IMG/VR virus record: IMGVR_UViG_3300021387_000700
Direction: 5' to 3' (one strand)
Length of the DNA: 64,000 nucleotides
From: a virus
A model generated the notes under the pieces. It had not been told where the DNA came from. It worked only from the letters and a program-made list of their open reading frames with translations, and did not search any database. This document shows, one piece after another, positions 7,108 through 56,396 of the stretch (within the stretch, counting starts at the first letter, position 1; every line of letters begins with the position of its first letter). The position numbers and the translations under genes were made by a program.

Positions 7108-10100
7108 ATGGCAGCAAATGATGATGTTCTGATTGTTGGTAAGCTTGATTCCAAAGAATTAGAAAAGTCGATTAACGATTTGATAGATTTCGTTGGTGAT
7201 AAGACTACTATAATGGCTGGTAAGTTTGATTCCGCAATGGATAAGATGAAATCGGCCATGAAGGATTTCGCTATTACGCAGAAAGTTTCCGTCGATTTGA
7301 TGAAGGAGGCTTGGAAGGATATGTCCGCGTCGTTTGATGCTATGGTAGCAGCTCAATCGGGTGCTACTGGTGGCGGCAAAGGTAAAGAGCCAAGGGAATA
7401 TGCGCCAAATACCATCGGTGCATTGGAGCAGGAAATTGAGAAACGCCAGCAAAACCGAAAGGAGATGGAGCTTGACAGCGACGCATTACGCCAAGAAAAC
7501 AAGCTCATCGAAGAGCGAAACAAAAAGCTGGCCGAGCAAAAGGGCTTGAATACTATGGCGGCGCAGGCTAAGAAAGCAGGCGAGGAAATCCGTGTAGCGT
7601 TCTCGCATCCCGCAAACAGCCTTGAGCAAGCCGAGGCAAAGCTCGCAAAGCTAAAGGCACTTGCTGCCAATTGGAAAGGTAAGGGCGTTTTGAATGAAAC
7701 GCAATGGAATAAGATTCAAAATGCCATTGATAGAACAGAAAAGTCTATCGAAAAGTTCAAGATGTCCGCAATGACATTAAAGGACTTAAAGCTCTTGCCC
7801 GAAAAATCAGTCGACGATATTACCAAGAAGCTGCAAGCTTTAAAGCATATTCAGATAGACCCGAAAAACGCCACGCAAGTCAAAAAGCTTGGCGACGAAT
7901 ACCAGCGTCTTTCCCGTATGCAGAATGAGCTTTTAGGCCGCAGCATACAGCTCACCAAATCCAACAACTATCTCGCGCAAAGTTTTGGTTATATCCGTAA
8001 CCGTATCGTTTATGCGCTTACGCTTGGTGCTGCGACATCGTTTGTTAAGCAAGTGTACGACATCCGTGCGCAATATGAACTGCTGGAGCGTTCCTTGGGC
8101 GTTCTGATAGGTTCTTTTGAACGTGGTAGCCGTATATTCCAAGAGCTGAACACAATGGCCTTGAAATCGCCGTTTACGCTTATGGAGTTGGGCACTGCCG
8201 CAAAGCAATTAACGGCATACAATTTCCAAGCAAACGAGGTTGTGAACACCACACGCCGTTTAGCAGACCTTTCCGCAGCTTTGGGCGTGCCTATGGAGCG
8301 TCTCACATACAACTTAGGTCAGATTCGCGCACAGACGGTACTTACAGCCCGTGATGCCCGCGACTTCGCAAATGCTGGTTTGCCTATCGTGAAATCGCTG
8401 GCAGACCATTTCTCTGAGCTTGAGGGGCGTGTCGTTTCTACGGGTGATGTCTACGACCGCATGAGTAAGAAGGCCGTGTCGTATAACGATGTTATGGCCG
8501 TGCTTAACAAAATGACAGACGAGGGCGGTAAGTTCTTTGATTTCCAAGCAAAGCAGGCAGAAACCCTTCGCGTGCAGTTAGCAAACCTTACATTGGCATG
8601 GAACAATATGCTTAATGCCGTTGGTAAGGAAAACCAAGGTATGCTCACATTGCCTATCACGGCTCTTAAATCGCTTTTCCAAAATTGGAAGGAACTTAGC
8701 CATGTAATAACCGAGGTCATTATTGCCCTTGGTCTTTACAAAGGCACACAACTCGTCGTAAACAAGCTCGTTGGCGAGAGTGCTATGGTGATGCGAAAGA
8801 GCATCCTTATGGATAAGGAAAAGGCCGCATCTGAACTGCAAAGAGAGGGTACAGTCCGCCGCTTGCTGGTAAGCGAGCAAAAACAGATAGCAAACAAAAA
8901 GAAAGTTGTCGCCGCCGATTACCAAGCCATCCTTTCAACACGCGAGCTTTCAAAGACGCAGGCTTTGTTGCTTGCTGCTTTTAACAAGAACGACAAGGAA
9001 TTGATGAAAGCCCTTGTTAAGCTAAAGCTGTTGAAGAAGTCCGAGATAGAGAATATCACCGTCGGAAAGGCTTTCTCGCTCGTTATCAAGCAGATGGGTA
9101 TTTCGCTTATGAGCCTTGGTAAGACTATCGCGATGTTCCTGCCGCAAATGGCGGCTATGGCCGCTATCGGTGCTATCGTTGAGGCCGTTTACACATTCTC
9201 CGAGATTAGCGATAAGATACGCGACATCAATAAGAGTATTGTGGATAGCGCAAAGGAAAGTGCCGATTCAATTGCACAATTCATGAAGGATTACAGCGAG
9301 ACCTATAAAAAGGTCTTTGAGTATCAAGAAAAGGTGCAAAAGAACGGTGTTCCTGCCACAAAGGACGGTATTCCACAATACAAGAATCTGAATGACGCAG
9401 AGGCGTTAAAGGCATGGGACGCAATCCGTGAGCAGATTGAGCTTTCAAGTGCTGCAAGCGGTGTGTTCATCGACAAGCTGATGCAGATAAATGACGTTAA
9501 TGACCGTGTTCGTGCTGGATTCGACTATCTCCAGCAGATTCACGATATTAACGGTGCGCTGGAGTCGCTTGACGATAAGGCCGTTACCATCAATGGCGAC
9601 TGGTCTAAGTGGTGGAACTTATGGTCTTTGCCCGATGGCCTTATTGACAACCTCAAGGATTATTCAGAACAGCTTGATAAGGTTATAGAGAAATGGGGTA
9701 GCCTTGCTAATGCAAAGGAAGCAGCCATGCGAAAGCAAGAGGGCGCAGAAGGCGATTTACACGATGTTCAAGCGCAGTTCAACACGTTCTCAAACGACCT
9801 CAAGGACACCATATCGTCAATGTTTAACGCATTTTCTTCCGTTGGTATCAATACGGCGGAGGGTATGCGAGAGGCATTTGAACGTTCCAATAATCAGATT
9901 CTTGCAGATGCCAACCTTTCTTCAAAGGAACAGCTTCAGTACCGCATGGCAGCGGAGGAGGAGTTTATCGCACAGCGCAAAGCCCAATTCAAAGAGGAAT
10001 ATGATTTTGAAATCGAGCAGGGCAATGCCGCACGCGCCGCACGGGTAAAGCAAGAAGAGGAGGCATGGCTTGCATCCTTTGGCAGCGGTAAGGCCGTTTC

Positions 10101-13100
10101 GCAGGCTTTCTTTGACTGGCTTAAAAACCAGCACGCAAGCGAAATCAACTCCATGTTTGGCAAAATGTCGCGCAGGGAGATTGAGCAGATAGATTGGTCA
10201 CAACCGAAATGGCAAAAGTGGGCGCAGGATAATGCCGAGTCGTTCAGCAAGCAGTACGGAATATCTTTCGATAAGCTGAAAGGGCTTGTTGCCGATGCTA
10301 ACACATGGAAGATTTTCCTCAAGCTTACCATCACCACCGACGAAAAGAGTGTTTATGATACACTTAAAGATGCAGATGCCGCAGCTAATGCCGCATGGAC
10401 TAAGATTCAGCGGTTAAAGCAACGCCAAGCCGAACTTAACAAGATTCCAGCCACATCGCTTACAGACGAGCAAAACGAAGAGGCAAAGAATCTTTTTACC
10501 GAGCTTACGCAGGCACAGAACGACTATAACGATGCTGTGGCAAAAGGCGGTCACGCCAGCAAGCAGGCAAAGGCCAACGCAAAAGCACAGAAAACAGCCG
10601 AGCAGGAGGTTAATGAGGCTTTACGTCAAGAGCTTTCTATCATCCGTGAGGTTCAAAGCAACTACGATAAGCTCCGCAAATCGGGTGTTGATGATATGCA
10701 GGCCGCACAATTGGCCGCACAAGGCTATGCGGACACATTAAGCCGCGTAAACAATATTCTTGCGAAATACGGCATAAGCAAGTTCAATGCAAAGGATTTC
10801 GCGGGAAAGGACACCCGTGCCATTCTTGAAACCCTGCAAAAGCAGCGCAATGACCTTATAGCAAGCGGGAAAGTTAAGGCCGCAGGCTTGAAGGACATGG
10901 ACGTCGAGATTCAAAAGCTTACCATCGATGCAAAGACCTACGATTACAAAAAGATTACAGATGGCCTTAATTCCGAGCTTGGTAAAATCAAGGACGAGTA
11001 CGAGCTGGCTGTTGAATTAGATGCCAACCCCGAACTTGGTGATATGTTTGCGGATATGTTCAGCATTGATACATCGTCACTGCCGCACACATTTGAGCAG
11101 GCACTTGCAATGATTCAATCTTCTGTCGATAATGCGTTAAGCAAGCTTGGCATTGAGCGTTCGTTTGATATTCTGAAAGGGGATATAAACGCCTTTGCGA
11201 AGTCGGTAAAACAGTCGATGGATGGCGATGCCATAAAAGAGCTGGAGAAGGCGCAAAATTATATTCGTGGTATTTGGAAAAAGAACGCAGAAGAGACCAT
11301 TAAAGACTGGAACTCCCTGCTTGAGAAGTACGGCGATTATCAAACAAAACTTATAAAGGCCGCACAAGATACTGCACAAGAGCAGCTTAATATTGTGCGA
11401 AAGTTTGGTGACGATTCCGAGCAGGCCGAGGCTTTGGATTTGTCTAAAAAGATAACTCTTACCACAGACCAAGACGAAGTCGCACGTATTCAAAAGCAGC
11501 TTTACGAACTTGTAAACAAGGTCGTTAAAGGCAAAGATGTTGGGATTAAGTTGGCGGCAAGTGTAGAGCAGGGCGATATAAAAACCAAAGCAAAAATTGA
11601 ATGGGATAACTTTAAGGATAGCGACTACTATACCATGATGTTTGAAGACATGGATAGGGTTTCTACCCGTGCAATTCGCTCTATTCTTGCGCAGCTTGAT
11701 TTGCTCAAGGAAAAAGTCAAAGACGACCCTGCAAGCATGAAGGCTCTTATGGATGCGTACAAGAAAGGCCGCGACGAGCTGGAAAGCCGTGCTCCGTTTG
11801 AGAATATCATAGAAAGCATAAAAGAGTGGCATCAAGCATCCGTCGAGGCAGCTGGTGCTAACAGAGAACTTGCTGACGCTAACAGAGAACTCGAAAGCGC
11901 ACAAGCCGAATTGAATAATGCTCAAAGCGCAGCCAATAATCCAAACGCAAGATTTGGTAACGAGGCTGAAAAAACAGAACGCCTTGCAAAAGCACAAGAG
12001 CGTTACACAAAGGCTGTCAAGAGCAAAAACCAAGCGGAGCAAAATGTTGCGCAGGCCGAAATAAAGCAGATAAACGCTCAAACAAAGTTCCAAAACGCCT
12101 TGAACGGTTCGGCAACAGCACTTCAAAACGTTGGTAATTTGCTGACGCAATTTGCAGAGCTGCTTGGTATCGCCGAGGATAGCGAGGCGGGTGAAATGGT
12201 CAAGTCGCTTGCACAAGGGTTTACCATGATGGCTACTGCTTTATCATTGGTAGCTACCGTAGCAGCAATAGCCGAAATGTCGCTTGGATGGGTCGCCGCT
12301 GTTGCAGCTGCACTTACGGTTGTTATAAGCCTCGTTTCTTTCCTTGCTGGCCAAAGCAATAGAAAGATTACAGAACAAATTGAAGAAATCGAGCGAGATG
12401 TACACGACCTTGAAATTGCGTATAAGAATTTGGAGCAAGCTGCCGACGAAGCCTATGGTGCTATGACAAGTGGCGCAAAGGCCGCTTTGCTTGCAAACAA
12501 GCAGGCTCAGTTGGAAGATTTGGAAAGACAGCTTGAGCTTGCAAAATCTCGAACGGGCAAGCATTACGACCAAGATGAAGTAGACAACTACCAAAGCGAA
12601 ATCGTAGACCTCCGTAATGAAATACGAGACCTCACGCATGAAATAACAAATGACTTGCTTGATATTTCAAGTGCTGGCGATGGCATAACAGACCTTGTTG
12701 ATGCAATGATTGAGGCTTTCAAAAACGGCGAGGATGCTATGGCCGCTTTTGGAGATAAGTGGGACGAGATGATTGATAATATGATTCTCAAAATGCTCAT
12801 ATCCACATTCATGCAAAAGGCTTGGGATAACGTTATGAAAACACTTGAAGAAAAAGAGGACGAGTTCCTACAAAGGGCAAGTGCAGACCGTGCCGAGGCG
12901 CAAAAGAATTACGACAAGGCATTCGATATGTCGGATGATGAGATAGCACAGATGATTGCCGAACAACTTGGCTATCATGATGAGGTGAGCATGAAAAGGA
13001 ACGATTTGGAGGATTTGGTCAAGAGAGGCAGTCTTGGTGTTGGCGGCATTGGCATGACCTCATACAATAGCACTCCATACTTCTTTGTCAAGGCTTGGCA

Positions 13101-13599
13101 GCAAGTCACAGACGAGGAAATCGCAGCATACCGCAAGATGCTAAAGGATGCTGTTGATAGCTCTATGTCCGCAACAGACCAAGCATCTGTAGACTTTACA
13201 AAATGGGCTTTGGATTATATGAACGGCGAAGGCCGTGATTATATGACGAATTACGCCGAAATGCTTAAAGCAGCACTTGGCGATTGGTATAGCTACGGCC
13301 AAGACGCGCAAGCAAGCTTATCCGCATTACAGCAGGGTATTCAAGGCATTAGCGAAGATACAGCAGGAGCTTTGGAGGCTTACATGAATAGCATTTCGCA
13401 GCAAGTCTACTTGCATAGCGAGCTTCTTACACAGCTACGTGACGCACTTGTTAATTTTGACCTTGACGTGCAGGTTGCAACGATGTCGCAGATGCTCTTG
13501 CAGTTGCAGCAAAGCTATCAAGTGCAATTGGCTATACAGAATATTCTTAACGGATGGTCTAATCCTTCGGGTATGGCCGTTCGTGTTGAAATGGTTTAA
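7108..13599 (+). CDS. tail length tape measure protein
   Basis: 2163 aa, largely coiled-coil. It has a hydrophobic hairpin MMATALSLVATVAAIAEMSLGWVAAVAAALTVVISLVSFLAG and follows the chaperone pair. Confidence 0.9.
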   Translation: MAANDDVLIVGKLDSKELEKSINDLIDFVGDKTTIMAGKFDSAMDKMKSAMKDFAITQKVSVDLMKEAWKDMSASFDAMVAAQSGATGGGKGKEPREYAPNTIGALEQEIEKRQQNRKEMELDSDALRQENKLIEERNKKLAEQKGLNTMAAQAKKAGEEIRVAFSHPANSLEQAEAKLAKLKALAANWKGKGVLNETQWNKIQNAIDRTEKSIEKFKMSAMTLKDLKLLPEKSVDDITKKLQALKHIQIDPKNATQVKKLGDEYQRLSRMQNELLGRSIQLTKSNNYLAQSFGYIRNRIVYALTLGAATSFVKQVYDIRAQYELLERSLGVLIGSFERGSRIFQELNTMALKSPFTLMELGTAAKQLTAYNFQANEVVNTTRRLADLSAALGVPMERLTYNLGQIRAQTVLTARDARDFANAGLPIVKSLADHFSELEGRVVSTGDVYDRMSKKAVSYNDVMAVLNKMTDEGGKFFDFQAKQAETLRVQLANLTLAWNNMLNAVGKENQGMLTLPITALKSLFQNWKELSHVITEVIIALGLYKGTQLVVNKLVGESAMVMRKSILMDKEKAASELQREGTVRRLLVSEQKQIANKKKVVAADYQAILSTRELSKTQALLLAAFNKNDKELMKALVKLKLLKKSEIENITVGKAFSLVIKQMGISLMSLGKTIAMFLPQMAAMAAIGAIVEAVYTFSEISDKIRDINKSIVDSAKESADSIAQFMKDYSETYKKVFEYQEKVQKNGVPATKDGIPQYKNLNDAEALKAWDAIREQIELSSAASGVFIDKLMQINDVNDRVRAGFDYLQQIHDINGALESLDDKAVTINGDWSKWWNLWSLPDGLIDNLKDYSEQLDKVIEKWGSLANAKEAAMRKQEGAEGDLHDVQAQFNTFSNDLKDTISSMFNAFSSVGINTAEGMREAFERSNNQILADANLSSKEQLQYRMAAEEEFIAQRKAQFKEEYDFEIEQGNAARAARVKQEEEAWLASFGSGKAVSQAFFDWLKNQHASEINSMFGKMSRREIEQIDWSQPKWQKWAQDNAESFSKQYGISFDKLKGLVADANTWKIFLKLTITTDEKSVYDTLKDADAAANAAWTKIQRLKQRQAELNKIPATSLTDEQNEEAKNLFTELTQAQNDYNDAVAKGGHASKQAKANAKAQKTAEQEVNEALRQELSIIREVQSNYDKLRKSGVDDMQAAQLAAQGYADTLSRVNNILAKYGISKFNAKDFAGKDTRAILETLQKQRNDLIASGKVKAAGLKDMDVEIQKLTIDAKTYDYKKITDGLNSELGKIKDEYELAVELDANPELGDMFADMFSIDTSSLPHTFEQALAMIQSSVDNALSKLGIERSFDILKGDINAFAKSVKQSMDGDAIKELEKAQNYIRGIWKKNAEETIKDWNSLLEKYGDYQTKLIKAAQDTAQEQLNIVRKFGDDSEQAEALDLSKKITLTTDQDEVARIQKQLYELVNKVVKGKDVGIKLAASVEQGDIKTKAKIEWDNFKDSDYYTMMFEDMDRVSTRAIRSILAQLDLLKEKVKDDPASMKALMDAYKKGRDELESRAPFENIIESIKEWHQASVEAAGANRELADANRELESAQAELNNAQSAANNPNARFGNEAEKTERLAKAQERYTKAVKSKNQAEQNVAQAEIKQINAQTKFQNALNGSATALQNVGNLLTQFAELLGIAEDSEAGEMVKSLAQGFTMMATALSLVATVAAIAEMSLGWVAAVAAALTVVISLVSFLAGQSNRKITEQIEEIERDVHDLEIAYKNLEQAADEAYGAMTSGAKAALLANKQAQLEDLERQLELAKSRTGKHYDQDEVDNYQSEIVDLRNEIRDLTHEITNDLLDISSAGDGITDLVDAMIEAFKNGEDAMAAFGDKWDEMIDNMILKMLISTFMQKAWDNVMKTLEEKEDEFLQRASADRAEAQKNYDKAFDMSDDEIAQMIAEQLGYHDEVSMKRNDLEDLVKRGSLGVGGIGMTSYNSTPYFFVKAWQQVTDEEIAAYRKMLKDAVDSSMSATDQASVDFTKWALDYMNGEGRDYMTNYAEMLKAALGDWYSYGQDAQASLSALQQGIQGISEDTAGALEAYMNSISQQVYLHSELLTQLRDALVNFDLDVQVATMSQMLLQLQQSYQVQLAIQNILNGWSNPSGMAVRVEMV

Positions 13600-17230: not shown

Positions 17231-17238
17231 CAAAGGTA
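17231..17238 (-). promoter_or_regulatory. Bacteroides-type -7 box (TACCTTTG on minus strand)
   Basis: The plus strand reads CAAAGGTA, about 55 nt upstream of ATG 17176. Confidence 0.45.
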
Positions 17239-17296
17239 GTATTTATTTTGGCATATTCCAAAGAAATTACATTATTTAACCAAACTTTAACGCTTT

Positions 17297-20199: not shown

Positions 20200-20207
20200 C
20201 AAAGATA
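20200..20207 (-). promoter_or_regulatory. Bacteroides-type -7 box (TATCTTTG on minus strand)
   Basis: The plus strand reads CAAAGATA in the 170-nt gap upstream of ATG 20075. Confidence 0.45.
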
Positions 20208-20245
20208 ATACTATTATTTGAAATATACAAACCTCTTAACGTTAT

Positions 20246-25517: not shown

Positions 25518-26326
25518 CACACTTTATTTTAAATATACCTAATAATAAGGTAACTTTAACAAAAGATTAACTATTATAAAGGTTTCTTTATATATATAAG
25601 ATACACTATTTATAATATAGATAACCTATATTAATAAGTATATACTATATATAGGGATATATCTGCATACGCACACACGCGAAAATTTTTCTTTTTTCAA
25701 AAATTTCTTTTTTTAAAAAATGGATTATGCGCACCACACCGATTTTGGGCGCAAAAATAGCCCCCACCCCCTATAAAACCCCGTAACTCGCTGAAAATCA
25801 AGCAGTTATAAATATTATACGTTCGTTTTTTATTTATAACTTTGCACCCGCTTATATTACACGACGGTACGACTAAATAATCCCCACAAAGATACGCAAA
25901 CAAAGGGCAAAAAGTATAATTTTCGGGCTGCAAAGATAGTATATATTTTAGTCTTGAAAATAGGCTGTTTTTAGGTAGTTTTATTTATAAGATAACTATA
26001 TATATAAAGTATATATATTTAAGGGCTACAAAGTGCAGGAAAATAGGAAATAATATAATATAAATAATCATGTTTTAATATAGGTTTATAGGCAAAAAGA
26101 AAAGCATACAAGAAAAAGAAAAATAAAATATATAAATCTATATAATAATATAATATAATAAATAAGAATAGAAAAAGAAATAAAAGAAAAAGAAAAGATA
26201 ATAAGTGTATCAAAAACAATTAATAATATTATGATGCTGGCAATAACAAAGAATAATTGTAAATAATACACTATCAAATAAGGGCTATAAATAAAGGGTG
26301 AAAAATGTTTCACGCTTATTTAGAAT

Positions 26327-26342
26327 TGTGTGCGGACACAAA
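26327..26342. repeat. palindromic box TGTGTGCGGACACAAA (copy 1)
   Basis: Arms TGTGT/ACACA around a central CG. Read directly from the sequence. Confidence 0.7.
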
Positions 26343-26532
26343 TAGAAAAGTATATAAAAAGTAATATTGTAATATATACACATAAAATGCTTGAAAACCT
26401 TATATATAAATGGCTCTAACATTTATTATATATTTCTGTTAATAAGTATATATTTTGCAGAAGTCCTTTATTTATGGGTGTTTCACGCAATTAGTGCAAT
26501 ATTTTATAAAAGTCTAAATAATAAAAGGCCTC

Positions 26533-26548
26533 TGTGTGCGTACACAAA
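26533..26548. repeat. palindromic box TGTGTGCGTACACAAA (copy 2)
   Basis: Same architecture as copy 1. Confidence 0.7.
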
Positions 26549-27025
26549 TCGCTTAAAATTTTGGGGCTGGTATAAGTACCCACAAAGAGCATGAAAACGC
26601 AACAGCGGGAAAATTGGGGTCTTTTGTCTTGAAAAAGTATATAAATAAAATATATTCATATATATGCTAAAAGCCCTTTATACAAAGGTATTTGCAAGGA
26701 TTTAGTATATTATATTCTGTAAATATTCTTTATTGTTAATAAATATTTAACTCCTTGATTATCAATAAGTTACGTTTTAAACGTAACCCTCGCAAAAATT
26801 CACCTTATAAATGTAATAAATACACTATTAAAATACCCTATCATTTTATATATAAGTGTATATAGTACACCGAAAATATAAATACCAGCGTTTTTGTATC
26901 TTTATAAAATGATATACTTTGCACATGCTACAAAGGTACAAAGAATATATAAATATAAGATATAAGGAAATAAGGTCGGCAGGGTGCAAAAGTACGGGAA
27001 AAGCGGGTAAAATAGGGTCTATAAT

Positions 27026-27041
27026 TGTGTCCGTACACAAA
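27026..27041. repeat. palindromic box TGTGTCCGTACACAAA (copy 3)
   Basis: Same architecture as copy 1. Confidence 0.7.
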
Positions 27042-27392
27042 ACGGCTTTTATTGTGCTGGGTATATAATTACTATATTTGCAGGCTTTTAACGCTGTGTC
27101 GGGCTTTAAAACATGCTTAAAACGAATTATTTGCATTTTTGCTATATATACGCGCATATTCATATTATAAATAAATAATGCAATAATCCAGCATTTTTGC
27201 ACCCGCTTATAAAATAGGCTTTTAACATTTTAAGTTATTGATTTTCAAGCAGTTACAAACTTTTGTAATTAGTTTTCATCATAAAAAGTGTTTCATTTGT
27301 TAATTTAATAGGCTTTTCATGCTTATATAATAAATAAAGGTTAAAAAAATAACTTTTTAGGCTTAAAAGTTTGGTATATAAAAATATATTTG

Positions 27393-27400
27393 TACCTTTG
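27393..27400 (+). promoter_or_regulatory. rightward promoter: TTTGGTATAT...-N-...TACCTTTGCACC
   Basis: The -33-like TTTG lies at 27370-27373 and the -7 box at 27393-27400. The layout is nearly identical to the promoters at 38291-38326 and 50707-50741. Confidence 0.55.
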
Positions 27401-27899
27401 CACCAGCAAAACGATAGAACGGCAGGCGGAAGCCACATAGCGGACAGGGGTCGTTTGCGGGCGAGGAAAAAGCCTCGACCTATCTTTGCAAGTTTGGGCA
27501 ATATATACGCAGTAAGTTGACAGCCCGAAGACTACAAAGGGAAATAGGACGAGCACATTATCCCGAAAACTTGCATTTACTTGTTAGCGTGCAAAGTTTT
27601 GACCCAGTCACCTAATAAGGAATTAAAAAGAATAGTTAGGGCTTTAAATAGTAACATTGATATTTAAAACAAAGGGCTGTTAATTGCATGATGTTTCAAT
27701 GAATTGCAAACAAGCAAATAACTCACTATTTTGTATTTTTGTGCAGGGTATTTAGCACTGGGAACAGAATCTATTTTGCACATACATAAATACTTGCAAA
27801 TAGGCAGATTAATTGCACCCGCAGGAAATTGACAACTAATAGGGCAAAATGAAAAACCGAATTTTTGCAGCCTTCAAATATAATCCACTTTATTTATTA

Positions 27900-27927
27900 A
27901 CGTATTAATTTTATAGGAGGTTTTATT
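27900..27927 (+). promoter_or_regulatory. conserved element ACGTATTAA-N-TATAGGAGG-N-ATG (copy a)
   Basis: acgtattaattttataggaggttttattATG. It carries a strong SD-like GGAGG. Confidence 0.6.
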
Positions 27928-29166
27928 ATGTTATTCAAGAATTTAGCTACAGAGGAGCAGGTAAATGTTTCTAATTTGTCACTGCGTGACGGTCGTGTTT
28001 TCTTTTCGGTACGTGGTAAGGGCTGCGGACAGCGTTTTTTCAATCGTAACACATGCCTCGTCCTTGATGAAGAGGCTGCGGACGGTACATTCCTAAAATG
28101 TGCCGAAGGCTGGGAAATAGTTGCAAAGGAGCGCAAACAGCCGAAGGAAGGCGGCAGAATTGCAACCAAAAAAGGCGTAAAAAAGGCGCAGGATGAAATA
28201 AAGCAGAATGATGAAATCAAGCAGGAAAACGAGGACGAAGCACTTGCAAAGGAAATCGCTGCCCTGCTTGCAAGCCGCAAAAATAATGCGGGTGCAATCA
28301 ATCGCGAGGAGGTCGAGGGTATTTTTGCCGAATTGCTTGCAAAGTATGCAAGCGAACAGCCGAAGGTTTTGGCAAAGGTAGTCAAGCGGTTGCAATCCAA
28401 GGAGGAGGAGAAAAACGAGGTTTATTGCGATAATTTCAATCGCATTAAGCGTGACCTCGAGGACGGTTTTCATGTGTACCTTTTCGGGCCTGCTGGCTGT
28501 GGTAAATCGCACACAGCGGAACAGCTTGCAAAAATGTTAGGGCTTGAATTTTACGGTCAGACCACTATTCAATTTGCACATGATGTCAAGGGCTACGGCG
28601 ATGCAGGCGGTAATTTCCAAGAGACGCCGTTTTTCAAGGCATTCGCAAACGGCGGTCTTTATTTCCAAGATGAATATGACCGCAGTTTTCCCGAGGCCAC
28701 TATCGCATTAAATTCTGCCCTTGCAAACGGCTGGTATGATTTTCCCGTAGTTGGCCGAGTTTATGCACATGAAAATTTCCGCTTTATGGCGGCAGGCAAT
28801 ACCCAAATGACTGGGGCTGACGAGCAGTACGTGACTGGGCAGGTTATGGATTCATCAAGCGTTGACCGCTTTTCTTGCATGTATGAAGTTGGCTATAATC
28901 ATACGGTCGAGATGAAGATTGCAAAGGGTAATAAAGACCTCGTGCAATTCATCGAAGATGTGCGCAGGGCTATCGCTGAATGTGGCATTAAGCATGTGGT
29001 CAGCTATCGTGCTACGGCTTATTTGATTAATCGCGAGGACGATATGGAATTTGCAGTTAAAAACTGCGTATTCAAGACCTTGTCGGTTGATGAAATAAGA
29101 ATGATTTGCAACAAGTTACGCCACACCGACAATATTTGGGCGCAGGCTGCAAATAAGGCGTTTTAA
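27928..29166 (+). CDS. AAA+ ATPase (MoxR/AAA_5-like)
   Basis: 412 aa. Walker A is LFGPAGCGKSH, Walker B is GLYFQDEYDRS, and FMAAGN is sensor-1-like. A K/E-rich N-terminal extension is present. Confidence 0.75.
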   Translation: MLFKNLATEEQVNVSNLSLRDGRVFFSVRGKGCGQRFFNRNTCLVLDEEAADGTFLKCAEGWEIVAKERKQPKEGGRIATKKGVKKAQDEIKQNDEIKQENEDEALAKEIAALLASRKNNAGAINREEVEGIFAELLAKYASEQPKVLAKVVKRLQSKEEEKNEVYCDNFNRIKRDLEDGFHVYLFGPAGCGKSHTAEQLAKMLGLEFYGQTTIQFAHDVKGYGDAGGNFQETPFFKAFANGGLYFQDEYDRSFPEATIALNSALANGWYDFPVVGRVYAHENFRFMAAGNTQMTGADEQYVTGQVMDSSSVDRFSCMYEVGYNHTVEMKIAKGNKDLVQFIEDVRRAIAECGIKHVVSYRATAYLINREDDMEFAVKNCVFKTLSVDEIRMICNKLRHTDNIWAQAANKAF

Positions 29167-34437: not shown

Positions 34438-35304
34438 ATGAAACAATTCGTTATTTATATTCGTGTATCAACACGAAAGCAGGGTGCAAGCGGATTAGGC
34501 TTGGAAAGCCAGCGCAAGATATGTACCGAACTTGTTAAATCAAAGGGCGGTGATGTTGTTGCAGAATTTAAGGACGTGGAAAGCGGTACGCACCGTGACA
34601 GAAAAGGTCTGCTGGCAGCGGTTGACTATTGCAAGAATAATAATTGCGCATTGGTTATCGCAAAGTTAGACCGCCTCGCCCGTGACGTGGAGTTCTGTTT
34701 CAAGGTAGTCAACACGGGTATAGATATTCACTTTGCGGATATGCCGACCATCAATACGCTTTTGCTTGGCGTGTTTGCATCTGTGGCGCAGTACGAAAGG
34801 GAACTTACCAGCGACCGCACGGTCAAAGCTTTGGCAGCAAAGAAGGCACGCGGCGAAAAGACTGGCGGCGCAAGCGACGCATGGATTGAGAACTACAACA
34901 AGAAGTCAAATATAGAAAAGCATGAGATTGGAATGAGAAGAGGAGCAACAAAGAACGAAAGACATCTTTTAAGCCGTGATGTGCAGGCGTTCATCAAGGC
35001 TTTGCGTAGCGTGTTCCCCGATGCCTGCAAGGGCGATGTAACCGAGTGGGATTTTAGCGCGATAAACACAAAGGAAACCTCACGTATCAAGCTGTTATCA
35101 TTGATGCGTGATTACAAGGAACTTGATAACACGTTATTTGCAAAGTGGGATTTATCGGGCGACGATTTATCCGCAAGACCTTTGCAGGTAAAATTGGCCG
35201 CACAGATTCAGTCTTTAAGAAACTCAGTCAAGAAACTCAATGAAAACAAAGACAACGAAAAAGGCGATGCGCTTTTGTGTGACTATGGAACGGGAATTGA
35301 CTAA
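34438..35304 (+). CDS. serine recombinase (resolvase/invertase-type catalytic domain)
   Basis: 288 aa. FVIYIRVSTRKQGASGLGLESQR contains the YxRVSTxxQ nucleophile motif, followed by LVIAKLDRLARD. The C-terminal half is not a recognisable HTH_7. Confidence 0.8.
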   Translation: MKQFVIYIRVSTRKQGASGLGLESQRKICTELVKSKGGDVVAEFKDVESGTHRDRKGLLAAVDYCKNNNCALVIAKLDRLARDVEFCFKVVNTGIDIHFADMPTINTLLLGVFASVAQYERELTSDRTVKALAAKKARGEKTGGASDAWIENYNKKSNIEKHEIGMRRGATKNERHLLSRDVQAFIKALRSVFPDACKGDVTEWDFSAINTKETSRIKLLSLMRDYKELDNTLFAKWDLSGDDLSARPLQVKLAAQIQSLRNSVKKLNENKDNEKGDALLCDYGTGID

Positions 35305-38189: not shown

Positions 38190-38314
38190 AAAGCTATGGC
38201 ATTGGTTATCATCCTTATCTGCGCGATTTGGTGTATCGGCAGGATATATCGGCAATGGTAAGTTAAGATAGGTTAAATTTTGGCTTATTGTTTGGTATAT
38301 TAAAATATTCATCG

Positions 38315-38322
38315 TACATTTG
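38315..38322 (+). promoter_or_regulatory. rightward promoter TTTGGTATAT...TACATTTGCACC
   Basis: The -33-like TTTG lies at 38291-38294 and the -7 box at 38315-38322. It is a near copy of the 27393 promoter. Confidence 0.55.
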
Positions 38323-50686: not shown

Positions 50687-50729
50687 CGTTAAAGTATATA
50701 AAATATTTGGTATATTACAAATTACTTTG

Positions 50730-50737
50730 TATCTTTG
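50730..50737 (+). promoter_or_regulatory. rightward promoter TTTGGTATAT...TATCTTTGCACC
   Basis: The -33-like TTTG lies at 50707-50710. It has the same architecture as the 27393 and 38315 promoters. Confidence 0.55.
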
Positions 50738-54372: not shown

Positions 54373-54435
54373 CCCTATCTGTGTTAAATAAGTGTTAAAG
54401 ATTTTATTTTCCTTTGTATATCCAAAAGAAAGTAT

Positions 54436-54443
54436 TACCTTTG
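54436..54443 (+). promoter_or_regulatory. Bacteroides-type -7 box TACCTTTGCAC upstream of the tRNA/tmRNA cluster
   Basis: It is preceded by TTTGTATAT. The first tRNA begins about 185 nt downstream. Confidence 0.5.
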
Positions 54444-54627: not shown

Positions 54628-54700
54628 CGCGGGGTGGAGCAGTTGGCAGCTCGCAAGGCTCATATCCTTGAGGTCGCAGGTTCGAGTCCTGCCCACCGCA
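54628..54700 (+). tRNA. tRNA-Met-like (anticodon CAU), initiator-like, atypical acceptor stem
   Basis: CGCGGGG-TG-GAGC-AGTTGGCA-GCTC-G-CAAGG-CTCATAT-CCTTG-AGGTC-GCAGG-TTCGAGT-CCTGC-CC(A)CCGCA. The D, anticodon and T arms are perfect. The acceptor pairs only if A54695 is bulged, and C1xA72 mismatches as in bacterial initiators. Confidence 0.6.
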
Positions 54701-54738: not shown

Positions 54739-54812
54739 TGCTCCATAGCGCAATTGGTCAGAGCATCAGAATTTGGGTCTGAGGGTTGCACGTTCGAGTC
54801 GTGCTGGGGCAA
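54739..54812 (+). tRNA. tRNA-Gln (anticodon UUG)
   Basis: Acceptor is TGCTCCA/TGGGGCA with U1-A72. The anticodon arm is TCAGA-ATTTGGG-TCTGA and the T arm is GCACG-TTCGAGT-CGTGC. Confidence 0.85.
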
Positions 54813-54817
54813 CAAAT

Positions 54818-54894
54818 GGGGTTTTAGCTCAGTTGGTTAGAGCATCTGCTTTGCAAGCAGAGGGTCGTGAGTTCGAGTCTCACATTCTCCACCA
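54818..54894 (+). tRNA. tRNA-Ala (anticodon UGC), CCA encoded, two U-U mismatches in the acceptor stem
   Basis: GGGGTTT-TA-GCTC-AGTTGGTTA-GAGC-A-TCTGC-TTTGCAA-GCAGA-GGGTC-GTGAG-TTCGAGT-CTCAC-ATTCTCC-ACCA. G3:U70 is present, and pairs 5-68 and 6-67 are U-U. Confidence 0.75.
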
Positions 54895-54900
54895 TGATAC

Positions 54901-55210
54901 GGGGGTATTTTGGTTTTGATTGTAGATGGATGGTAAGAAATCGTGCAAGCAATCATGCTTTGAAATGGTAAAAACAATAAATGCTAAGGTTGTCAATATG
55001 ACTCCCCGTGCTCAAGTGCTGGCAGCAGCCGCATAAGCACCTCGCTGGTGACTTGCGAAGGAACATAAAAGTTACGGCTCGTTTTCTCCGTTTTCTCAAA
55101 ACGTAGTGGTGGAACGCTCGTCCAAGTTATAAAAGCTGGTCAGCCCCGACGCACGTAACAAGTTTCTATGATAAATCTGCAAGACGAGGGTTCGACTCCC
55201 TCTACCTCCA
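54901..55210 (+). ncRNA. ssrA: tmRNA (ssrA-like)
   Basis: The 5' GGGGGTA pairs with the 3' TACCTCC(A), including G3:U70. The T arm is GAGGG-TTCGACT-CCCTC. TTGTAGAT near the 5' end pairs with ATCTGCAA near the 3' end (P2). An internal frame ...GCT AAG GTT GTC AAT ATG ACT CCC CGT GCT CAA GTG CTG GCA GCA GCC GCA TAA ends in an Ala-rich tag. Confidence 0.8.
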
Positions 55211-55241
55211 CTTGAATATTTTATTTTTAATCATAAGAAAG

Positions 55242-56396
55242 ATGAGTAGAATTAAATTTAATGTTGATGAATGGCTACCCCGCTTATCGCAAGTTGTAGG
55301 CGTAGTTAATTCAAAAAATCCCCTGCCTATCCTTGGCGACATCTTAATCAAAACAGACATGGAAGCCCAAAGGGGGCTTACGTTCACAGCCAGCGATTCG
55401 GAAACATGGCTCACCATCGAAGCACCACATCTTAGCTTTGACGATAGCTTTGAAATCTGCATCGCTGCCGTTGACTTCTACAAGGCATTATGCAATCTGA
55501 AAGGAAAGCAGGTTTGTATGACATTGGATGCCGAGCATCACACCGTAGAATGTGATTACGGTAATGGCCGTTTTACGATGGCCTACGAGGATGCTACAGA
55601 ATATCCAAAGCCAAATATGGATGCCAGCGATTCACAAAGCAAGGTTATCGACGCTGATAAGCTGCTTTACGCGGTAAATAAGCCCGATTACGCCACAGCT
55701 AACGATGAGTTACGCCCCGTAATGAATGGCATACGCCTTGAGTTCTTTGCAGATGGTATGGTAGCCGTTGCAACCGACGGTCACAAGCTTGCAAAGTTCA
55801 AGGATTTGTCTATCATTCCCGAAGGCGATAACGTGGAGGTTTGTGGTTTCACATTACCAAAGAAACCTGCTGGAGTGCTGCGTAATCTGCTTAATCAGTT
55901 CGGTGGCGATGTAAGCATAACCTTTAACGACAGATGCGCCACATTCGCAATTGCCGATTGCTTTACATTGAACACCCGTCTTATCGAAGGCCGTTATCCC
56001 AATTATGAAAGTGTTATCCCAAGGGAAAATACCATCGTTGCCACTATTGACAAGGCCGCTTTCATTGCTGCCATGAAACGTGTGCTGCCGATGAGTAACG
56101 CATCAAGCGAGCTTATCAGCTTTAAGTTTACGATGGGTAACATGGAGATTAGCGCAGAGGACTACGATTTCAGCCGCGCCGCAAGCGAAAACATTTCCTG
56201 CGACTATGCCAGCCCCGACCTACAGATTGGATTTAAGGGCAGCGTGATTATGGCCGTTCTGCAAAGCATTGATGATGATTCCGTAAAGGTCTACTTGAAG
56301 GATTCCATGCGTGCAGGCGTATTCATGCCAGCTACGCAAAAGGATAATACGTCGTATCTTGCGCTTGCAATGCCGATGCTTATTCAAGACAAATAA
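55242..56396 (+). CDS. dnaN: DNA polymerase III beta sliding clamp
   Basis: Start at ATG 55242. MSRIKFNVDEWLPRLSQVVGVVNSKNPLPILGDILIKTD parallels the DnaN N-terminus (...PILGNLLL...). At 384 aa it has the size of a three-domain clamp. Confidence 0.8.
   Translation: MSRIKFNVDEWLPRLSQVVGVVNSKNPLPILGDILIKTDMEAQRGLTFTASDSETWLTIEAPHLSFDDSFEICIAAVDFYKALCNLKGKQVCMTLDAEHHTVECDYGNGRFTMAYEDATEYPKPNMDASDSQSKVIDADKLLYAVNKPDYATANDELRPVMNGIRLEFFADGMVAVATDGHKLAKFKDLSIIPEGDNVEVCGFTLPKKPAGVLRNLLNQFGGDVSITFNDRCATFAIADCFTLNTRLIEGRYPNYESVIPRENTIVATIDKAAFIAAMKRVLPMSNASSELISFKFTMGNMEISAEDYDFSRAASENISCDYASPDLQIGFKGSVIMAVLQSIDDDSVKVYLKDSMRAGVFMPATQKDNTSYLALAMPMLIQDK

Follow-up and report, generated by a model that had tools for sequence, protein, structure and literature searches.

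A gene for a transfer-messenger RNA (tmRNA), 310 nucleotides (nt) long, lies on the plus strand at positions 54901-55210 of IMG/VR virus record IMGVR_UViG_3300021387_000700, here analysed as one stretch of 64,000 nt (the window). It is confirmed that this segment is a genuine tmRNA gene inside a tailed phage. As judged from an alignment of 43 homologues, its fold and its tag reading frame are under purifying selection, in a phage genome and behind a host-type promoter motif. The gene product is predicted to be a functional one-piece tmRNA (ssrA) of a tailed phage that infects ruminant-gut Bacteroidales and is probably virulent, and the probability of this reading is put at roughly 0.78.

The identity of the RNA was established with two programs that the original prediction, made from the letters alone, had named as checks; both gave a positive result. 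ARAGORN calls a tmRNA at 54901-55211 with the tag AKVVNMTPRAQVLAAAA* and the resume codon GCU. The RF00023 covariance model aligns end to end (model positions 1-374) and scores 67.7 bits (E 3.3e-24; gathering score 47), and its resume-codon columns fall on the same GCU. The ARAGORN gene and the end-to-end score put the tmRNA identity far beyond chance. The tag frame from GCU to GCA UAA, whose resume codon had at first been a guess, is thereby borne out.

Fold and tag of the phage RNA

The elements of the RNA are listed below, all on the plus strand. Coordinates are those of the window, while nt numbers count from G1.

54901-55210: tmRNA gene, G1 to discriminator A, 310 nt (ARAGORN, Rfam RF00023, 43-member alignment)
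54901-54907 with 55203-55209: acceptor stem, GGGGGUA with UACCUCC, including G3:U70, invariant; discriminator A at 55210
54920-54927 with 55175-55182: helix P2a, two-sided changes in 7 of 8 pairs, 97% of cells paired
54936-54946 with 55162-55167 and 55151-55155: helices P2c (AGAAAU) and P2d (CGUGC), 97-100% paired, two-sided pairs 2 in P2c and 1 in P2d
54947-54969: pseudoknot 1 (PK1), stem a nt 47-50 with 57-60, stem b nt 52-56 with 65-69, 2 compensatory pairs each
54983-55036: tag frame, resume GCU at 54983-54985, 17 codons (AKVVNMTPRAQVLAAAA), stop UAA at 55034-55036
55008-55040: helix 5, codons 9-10 (GUGCU) with AGCAC spanning the stop, 3 of 4 core pairs compensatory, 100% paired
55042-55075: pseudoknot 2 (PK2), stem a nt 142-146 with 154-158, stem b nt 148-153 with 170-175, 4 compensatory pairs each
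55086-55113: hairpin Hx, nt 186-194 with 198-206, then UGGUGGA, nt 207-213 (family alignment)
55122-55139: hairpin Hy, nt 222-224 with 237-239, small, variable, weakly supported
55186-55202: T arm GAGGG-UUCGACU-CCCUC, 4 of 5 pairs compensatory, 100% of cells paired

The tRNA-like domain contains everything that had been read from the sequence: the acceptor strands with G3:U70, the discriminator A and the T arm are all in place. The G3:U70 pair is G-U in all 43 homologues, and the acceptor stem and discriminator are invariant. The apparent acceptor-stem mismatches in eight alignment rows are a shift by one column introduced by MAFFT. No CCA is encoded at the 3' end, where the sequence reads on as A-CUU.

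For the covariation analysis, the pseudoknotted structure was written in window numbering and its pairs were counted over the 43-sequence alignment (A3). Standard pairs fill 93.4% of the cells, compared with 40-47% in slid controls and 86.4% after shuffling. Changes on both sides are seen at 36 pairs (4-16 in slid controls, 20.9 +/- 2.2 in shuffled alignments), and none of 500 shuffles reaches 36. An unbiased scan of all column pairs returns as its top helices both stems of the post-tag pseudoknot, the T arm, both stems of PK1, and P2. The absence of such covariation had been named beforehand as a refutation of the call; the pairings are instead supported across the homologues. The single-sequence minimum-free-energy z-score is weak (-1.75), as expected for a pseudoknotted RNA, and was not used as evidence.

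The long P2 helix joins the tRNA-like domain to the pseudoknot ring and carries ten two-sided pairs (P2a, P2c and P2d together). The pairing of UUGUAGAU with AUCUGCAA proposed earlier holds, with compensatory changes in seven of the eight P2a pairs. A regular P2b (nt 28-35 with 268-274) was dropped, as by eye it is unconserved. PK1 is located upstream of the resume codon, as in a standard tmRNA, and its stems are paired in 98-100% of the cells.

Downstream of helix 5 the RNA is reduced, as the original prediction had supposed. Three more pseudoknots (PK2-PK4) belong to the RF00023 description of this region; one further pseudoknot is supported here, and the PK3 and PK4 blocks are absent. Their absence leaves the tmRNA membership intact, since PK2-PK4 are typical of tmRNAs but variable among them. 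Only 75 nt separate PK2 from the 3' strand of P2, and these are taken up by Hx, UGGUGGA and Hy. Every one of the 43 members has Hx; its stem comes in 17 variants and shows compensatory changes at four positions. No second strand was found that would make it an H-type pseudoknot, and its loop is just CUC in many members. An outer extension of Hx was dropped, its two outermost pairs being only 45% paired. Hy is paired in 99% of the cells; its changes are one-sided only and its loop length varies.

Two alternative pairings were considered. The UGGUGGA at 55107-55113 is invariant in 43 of 43 members, and its GGUGGA is complementary to UCUACC (nt 301-306) at the junction of the T stem and the acceptor 3' strand. 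It is conceivable that these invariant bases pair. CUCGUC is likewise complementary to GACGAG, and these bases are also invariant.

The tag frame comprises 15-18 codons over the 43 variants. Its five length classes all differ by whole codons, and every variant stops at UAA. GCA or GCG makes up the last codon, while the penultimate one is GCC, GCA, GCU or GCG (GUC once), so that all four third-position bases occur in the terminal Ala-Ala codons. This synonymous variation and the in-frame insertions and deletions argue for a translated frame. There is almost no variation in the first ten residues, AKVV[N/D]MTP[R/C/V]A, and the third positions of codons 2-7 never vary in the family. Residues 11-15 are hypervariable (Q/K/N/E/S/T, M/V/L/Y, L/R, A/K/I). 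Codons 9-10 are tied to helix 5: the change from R to C (CGU to UGC) is matched by a change after the stop codon. At 54986-55000 an AAGG is followed 8 nt on by an in-frame AUG (Met6), resembling a Shine-Dalgarno sequence and start codon, and these bases are invariant in the family. The arrangement is probably coincidental, since Shine-Dalgarno sequences are little used in Bacteroidota.

Homologues, host group and genomic setting

The family was collected by several routes. An IMG/VR scan for the exact 29-nt 3' end matched 15 viral contigs, 13 of which carry a tmRNA of 302-325 nt with a tag of the form AKVV[N/D]MTP[R/C]A..AAA. Further members came from an IMG/VR scan with a tag-region pattern, and from a metagenome scan together with a local nhmmer profile, which gave 74 matches, 43 of them distinct full-length sequences. 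The pairwise identity of these 43 ranges from 59 to 99.7% (median 83%). The relatives on IMG/VR viral contigs, which are up to 141 kb long, score 64-78 bits against RF00023. The order tRNA-Ala, tmRNA, sliding clamp is restricted to the clade of the window. In most other carriers the flanking genes are unrelated, which points to a tmRNA gene common to different phage backbones.

The search was also repeated independently of the tag. A loose motif (GAAGGAACA-N30-60-TGGTGGA) was unspecific and matched by chance: it gave at least 118 new loci, and among the matches listed none had a tmRNA. A stricter motif, as a limited unbiased check, recovered 19 known members and 14 chance loci, and no new tag types. 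The tag N-terminus is the same in the 13 of 13 tmRNAs from the 29-nt scan and in the 19 of 19 true matches of the tag-independent scan, these RNAs being closely related.

Some copies and neighbouring finds depart from the common form. Two members from different clades, L041:4813-5122 (-) and L055:13674-13992 (-), have a non-canonical T loop, GGCAGAA or GGCAGUA, in place of UUCGACU, and their D-loop analogue is also altered (UAAAAUAGGAUAGA). L041 retains the tag of the window, and its clamp is 98% identical to that of the window. The interacting loops may have been exchanged in concert, or the copies could be inactive. ARAGORN misses both, as well as L075 and L014. The last of these (L014:107-503 (+), on a 72-kb IMG/VR contig) is an unrelated, full-size tmRNA of 397 nt with 85.4 bits and an encoded CCA. 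Its 29-nt 3' end is identical to that of the window, and its tag is GNVLNKMAAIGLVREDATVAA according to the covariance-model alignment. This suggests that several phage tmRNA lineages carry a Bacteroidales-type tRNA-like domain. A permuted two-piece tmRNA (RF04321, 52.1 bits) was found at L015:920-1179 (+), on a viral contig that shares the 29-nt T-arm/acceptor sequence. At L278:2-163 and similar loci, public gene callers place a spurious open reading frame (ORF) of 53 residues over the 3' half of the tmRNA, upstream of the clamp.

Among 185,579 species-representative genomes, the 29-nt 3' end occurs on a single contig, which belongs to a metagenome-assembled genome (MAG) of the Porphyromonadaceae (CAMWSM010000062.1, L023). 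There it is part of a canonical tmRNA of 401 nt with the tag GENNNYALAA and 150.7 bits against RF00023. As the sequence is found in this one MAG only, and there in a full-length tmRNA, the short RNA is not a host gene. The two RNAs are alike in the tRNA-like domain. Their 3' 29 nt (T arm and acceptor 3' strand) are identical and the 5' acceptor and D-analogue near-identical, the 5' 21 nt of L007 matching the MAG at 20 of 21 positions. They also share G3:U70, the discriminator A, P2, PK1, an A-rich leader that precedes the resume codon, a helix 5 that covers the stop codon and a tag that ends in Ala-Ala.

The differences lie mainly in size and in the ring. With 310 nt up to the discriminator, the phage RNA falls about 90 nt short of the 401-nt cellular form, in agreement with the shortness noted in the original prediction, and it scores 67.7 vs. 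150.7 bits. The MAG tmRNA fills helix 5, PK2, PK3 and PK4 of the model, whereas the alignment of the phage RNA deletes the PK3 and PK4 blocks and has two hairpins and the invariant UGGUGGA where these would be. The tags, of 17 and 10 residues, are alike at the end only. Furthermore, the phage gene adjoins phage tRNAs in a phage genome. The missing CCA had been counted among the differences from cellular tmRNAs. It is indeed unencoded, but the Bacteroidales comparator lacks it too, so that it does not set the phage RNA apart from the tmRNAs of its likely host group. In its tRNA-like domain, the phage RNA is therefore a streamlined derivative of a Bacteroidales tmRNA, or closely mimics one.

The surroundings of the gene in the window are as follows, again on the plus strand.

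54413-54443: promoter motif TTTG-N19-TAccTTTG, Bacteroidota-type, upstream of the tRNA/tmRNA cluster (motif scan; putative function)
54629-54700: tRNA-Met (CAU) (ARAGORN; Rfam tRNA 53.4 bits)
54739-54813: tRNA-Gln (UUG) (ARAGORN, Rfam)
54818-54894: tRNA-Ala (UGC), CCA encoded, ending 6 nt before G1 of the tmRNA (ARAGORN, Rfam)
55242-56396: gene of the DNA polymerase III beta sliding clamp, its ATG 31 nt past the discriminator A (three beta-clamp Pfam domains)

The promoter motif is located in the gap between the stop codon of a methyltransferase gene (54372) and tRNA-Met. The acceptor stem of tRNA-Ala shows two U.U mismatches at positions 5-6 in the Rfam alignment, and this tRNA encodes its own CCA, unlike the adjoining tmRNA. 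The Bacteroidota consensus TTTG-N17-21-TAnnTTTG has seven copies in the window, compared with 2.5 expected. Copies are found at 27370-27400, 38291-38322, 50706-50737 and 54413-54443 (plus strand), and at 17231-17262 and 20200-20231 (minus strand). Most have the extended form TTTGgTATAT...TAyCTTTG, are intergenic and are oriented with the genes. A sigma-70 promoter scan of the window showed no enrichment (13 vs. 11.4 expected).

The terminator scan found no plus-strand terminator-like site from the promoter motif at 54413-54443 up to the clamp gene. With the motif upstream and the clamp only 31 nt away, co-transcription of the tRNAs, the tmRNA and the clamp is plausible. Of the operon proposed in the original prediction, the clamp gene that follows is in place, while the shared transcript is inferred from the motif and the terminator scan.

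Several lines point to the host. The identical 3' end, the L007 5' match, the promoter motifs and the clamp together indicate a Bacteroidales host group; the assemblies in which the identical clamp protein recurs are labelled bovine metagenome in their record names. Among 50,697 GenBank phage records, the clamp reaches at most 37% identity, the best matches being uncultured faecal phage contigs. Neither a megablast of 24 kb of the window nor a blastn of the tmRNA alone gave a match to these records, and a 1-kb blastn query returned tRNA similarities only.

The other genes are those of a phage. They encode a tape measure protein, a weak match to a major head protein, a primase-helicase, a DNA methyltransferase and the three-domain beta clamp, and further Pfam matches are RecT, SSB, two RNase H domains and more methylases. 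At 2,163 residues, the tape measure protein (7108-13599) is very long, and at least four ORFs in the window are N6/N4 DNA methyltransferases. Pfam scans of the 112 window ORFs found no tyrosine integrase, Clp or Lon protease, or CCA-adding enzyme. The sole recombinase detected is a resolvase/invertase-type serine recombinase at 34438-35304, 20 kb from the tmRNA. SmpB was found in these ORFs neither by Pfam nor by phmmer, with an E. coli SmpB query (best E 0.8). The RNA must therefore rely on the host for AlaRS (alanyl-tRNA synthetase), SmpB, EF-Tu, processing enzymes, proteases and CCA addition, unless such partners are encoded beyond the window.

Positions 26310-27928 form a region of 1.6 kb without ORF and with very low G+C (29% over 26-28 kb). 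Here the gene blocks switch from the minus to the plus strand, and the cumulative GC skew has its minimum. This may be an origin or a divergent control region. A search of the AT-rich 26-28 kb for repeats gave weak AT-rich ones only.

Proposed action and rival explanations

In the favoured reading, the RNA would be made and used much like a host tmRNA. Transcription would most likely start at the Bacteroidota-type promoter and include tRNA-Met, tRNA-Gln and tRNA-Ala. Host tRNA-processing enzymes would release the RNA, and the host CCA-adding enzyme would complete its 3' end. By means of G3:U70 and the discriminator A, it would be charged with alanine by the host alanyl-tRNA synthetase (AlaRS). 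Host SmpB and EF-Tu would then bring it to ribosomes that have stalled on mRNAs that are broken or lack a stop codon. Translation would resume at GCU and append the peptide (A)AKVVNMTPRAQVLAAAA, a tag of 17 residues, or 18 with the charged Ala. The Ala-Ala-COOH end would send the product to host proteases. The phage would benefit from extra rescue capacity at a time when mRNA decay, host shut-off or RNase-based defences stall many ribosomes.

Several points weigh against this reading. Activity and a role in infection are inferred from established tmRNA biology. The tag is long, contains basic residues and ends in ...LAAAA, RAAA or RKAA, compared with ...YALAA in Bacteroidales, so recognition by host proteases is an assumption. 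As two of the scans required tag sequence, the invariance of codons 2-8 is in part ascertainment. The non-canonical T loops of L041 and L055 imply that some family copies need not be active. The window covers 64 kb, while the whole genome may have about 85 kb, and a phage SmpB may be encoded elsewhere. Finally, the loss of PK3 and PK4 could lower activity; work in E. coli indicates that PK2-4 are dispensable.

One rival holds that the RNA is a competitor or decoy, which mainly titrates host SmpB (or AlaRS or EF-Tu) or displaces the host tmRNA and so blunts or re-routes host trans-translation instead of supplying more rescue. It would fit a phage that shares the host pool, no SmpB being found in the window, and an RNA whose tRNA-like domain is identical or near-identical to that of Bacteroidales. 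The tag is also unlike that of the host, and there is a precedent in mycobacteriophage DS6A, whose RNA made of the tRNA-like domain only has been proposed to be inhibitory (PMC4131195, PMC11915505). However, a pure decoy needs nothing but this domain, while in this family selection also acts on PK1, on the surroundings of the resume codon, on helix 5 and on an in-frame tag that ends with UAA. The synonymous variation in the terminal Ala codons and the whole-codon length changes further indicate that the frame is translated, which makes the decoy improbable.

The conservation of the tag could also be read as re-programmed tagging. The tmRNA would then be active, and its AKVVNMTP(R)A module would give rescued polypeptides another fate. 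The first ten residues are essentially invariant in RNAs down to 59-65% identity and unrelated to GENNNYALAA, and basic residues frequently precede the Ala-Ala (RAAA, RKAA), in contrast to the canonical ...ALAA. Part of the conservation in codons 3-8 is nevertheless imposed by the search patterns, and codons 9-10 are constrained by helix 5. The invariant third positions of codons 2-7 fit an RNA-level constraint or recent common descent equally well. No candidate adaptor was found in the window. Such re-programming is therefore considered doubtful, and the same caution applies to the fates proposed for the product, namely handling by another protease or adaptor, a slower breakdown, or a phage factor that recognises it.

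It is very improbable that the gene is a functionless piece of host ssrA, i.e., a fragment from imprecise excision, an attP site (the 3' segment of an integrative element) or a decaying pseudogene. In favour of such an origin, integration often takes place at tmRNA genes (PMC11915505, PMC9004378), a cellular tmRNA has the identical 29-nt 3' end, and the RNA is truncated relative to cellular forms. Yet the gene is full length from the 5' acceptor strand to the discriminator, and it is flanked by phage genes deep inside the genome. The compensatory covariation is extensive and the frame intact in 43 variants, and at the 29-nt level the short form is absent from the 185,579 species genomes. An attP-type 3' fragment beside an integrase was rejected specifically, given the full-length gene and the lack of a tyrosine integrase domain among the 112 ORFs; the only recombinase is the distant serine enzyme. 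The functional one-piece tmRNA is the preferred reading.

Meaning and comparison with known tmRNAs

The catalogued phage tmRNAs have no demonstrated role, and the family described here is well suited as a defined case for testing one. Its members are widespread among phages of the ruminant gut and occur on several unrelated backbones. With about 300 nt and two pseudoknots, the RNA is small enough to serve as a natural minimal tmRNA. A phage-tagged product (AAKVVNMTPRAQVLAAAA) would be clearly separable from the host tag by mass spectrometry. If active, the RNA would be direct evidence of phages adding to or redirecting the ribosome rescue of Bacteroidales, which are a dominant group in the gut and have been little studied for trans-translation. 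For annotation, the family also illustrates that ARAGORN misses relatives and that gene callers overlay spurious ORFs on the RNA.

A bolder and rather unlikely extension is that of a dedicated phage component of trans-translation: a minimal two-pseudoknot tmRNA whose AKVVNMTP(R)A module is read by a factor other than that for host SsrA, or escapes the host machinery. In that case the phage, and not the host, would decide the fate of proteins freed from stalled ribosomes during infection, for example by recycling host nascent chains or by neutralising RNase-based abortive-infection defences. The presence of at least two unrelated lineages that combine long non-host tags with a Bacteroidales-type tRNA-like domain (the family of the window and L014) would then point to a recurrent strategy of gut-Bacteroidales phages.

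Phage tmRNAs as a category are already known. Of 18,146 phage genomes, 402 contained one, with 133 unique tmRNAs (PMC9004378). Phage tmRNAs occur in about 2.3% of sequenced phage genomes and are routine ARAGORN calls (PMC9004378, PMC4131195, PMC7162821). The sporadic occurrence suggested by the original prediction therefore overstates their rarity; that their role is still hypothetical does hold (PMC4131195, PMC7162821, PMC9004378, PMC12656738, PMC13503771). A 2014 listing contains cluster C mycobacteriophages, Bacillus phage G and the DS6A form that consists of the tRNA-like domain only (PMC4131195). In huge phages, tmRNAs were reported together with SmpB (PMC7162821). Recent isolates with a tmRNA have been noted (PMC12656738), and standard phage annotation includes tmRNA calling with ARAGORN (PMC13503771). 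In the searchable literature, whose coverage is incomplete, neither this family nor any tmRNA of a Bacteroidales phage was found described. On this coverage the family is previously undescribed; it is unusually compact, with its own conserved, non-host tag.

Compared with the one-piece phage tmRNAs (cluster C phages such as Bxz1, Bacillus phage G, huge phages and Bradyrhizobium elkanii phages), the gene of the window is likewise a complete ssrA. Those genes, too, are often near tRNA genes and detected by ARAGORN, and their role is hypothesised (PMC4131195, PMC7162821, PMC9004378, PMC12656738). The gene of the window differs in having no detectable sequence similarity to any tmRNA in 50,697 GenBank phage records and in its Bacteroidales host group. 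Some huge phages encode SmpB, whereas this window contains none. The comparison covers sequence, host group and partners; the RNA of the window is itself compact, with two pseudoknots. The Melnitz-type two-piece tmRNAs of marine myophages are similarly phage-borne, with a promoter just upstream and proposed early expression (PMC9004378). In contrast, the RNA of the window is one-piece and unpermuted and belongs to another host lineage, and Rfam found no riboswitch. The mini-tmRNA of mycobacteriophage DS6A is also a shortened, phage-carried derivative that depends on host SmpB. It has no tag frame, and its presumed action is to inhibit trans-translation (PMC4131195). A DS6A-type RNA was rejected for the window, whose tmRNA keeps a conserved tag frame, PK1 and helix 5.

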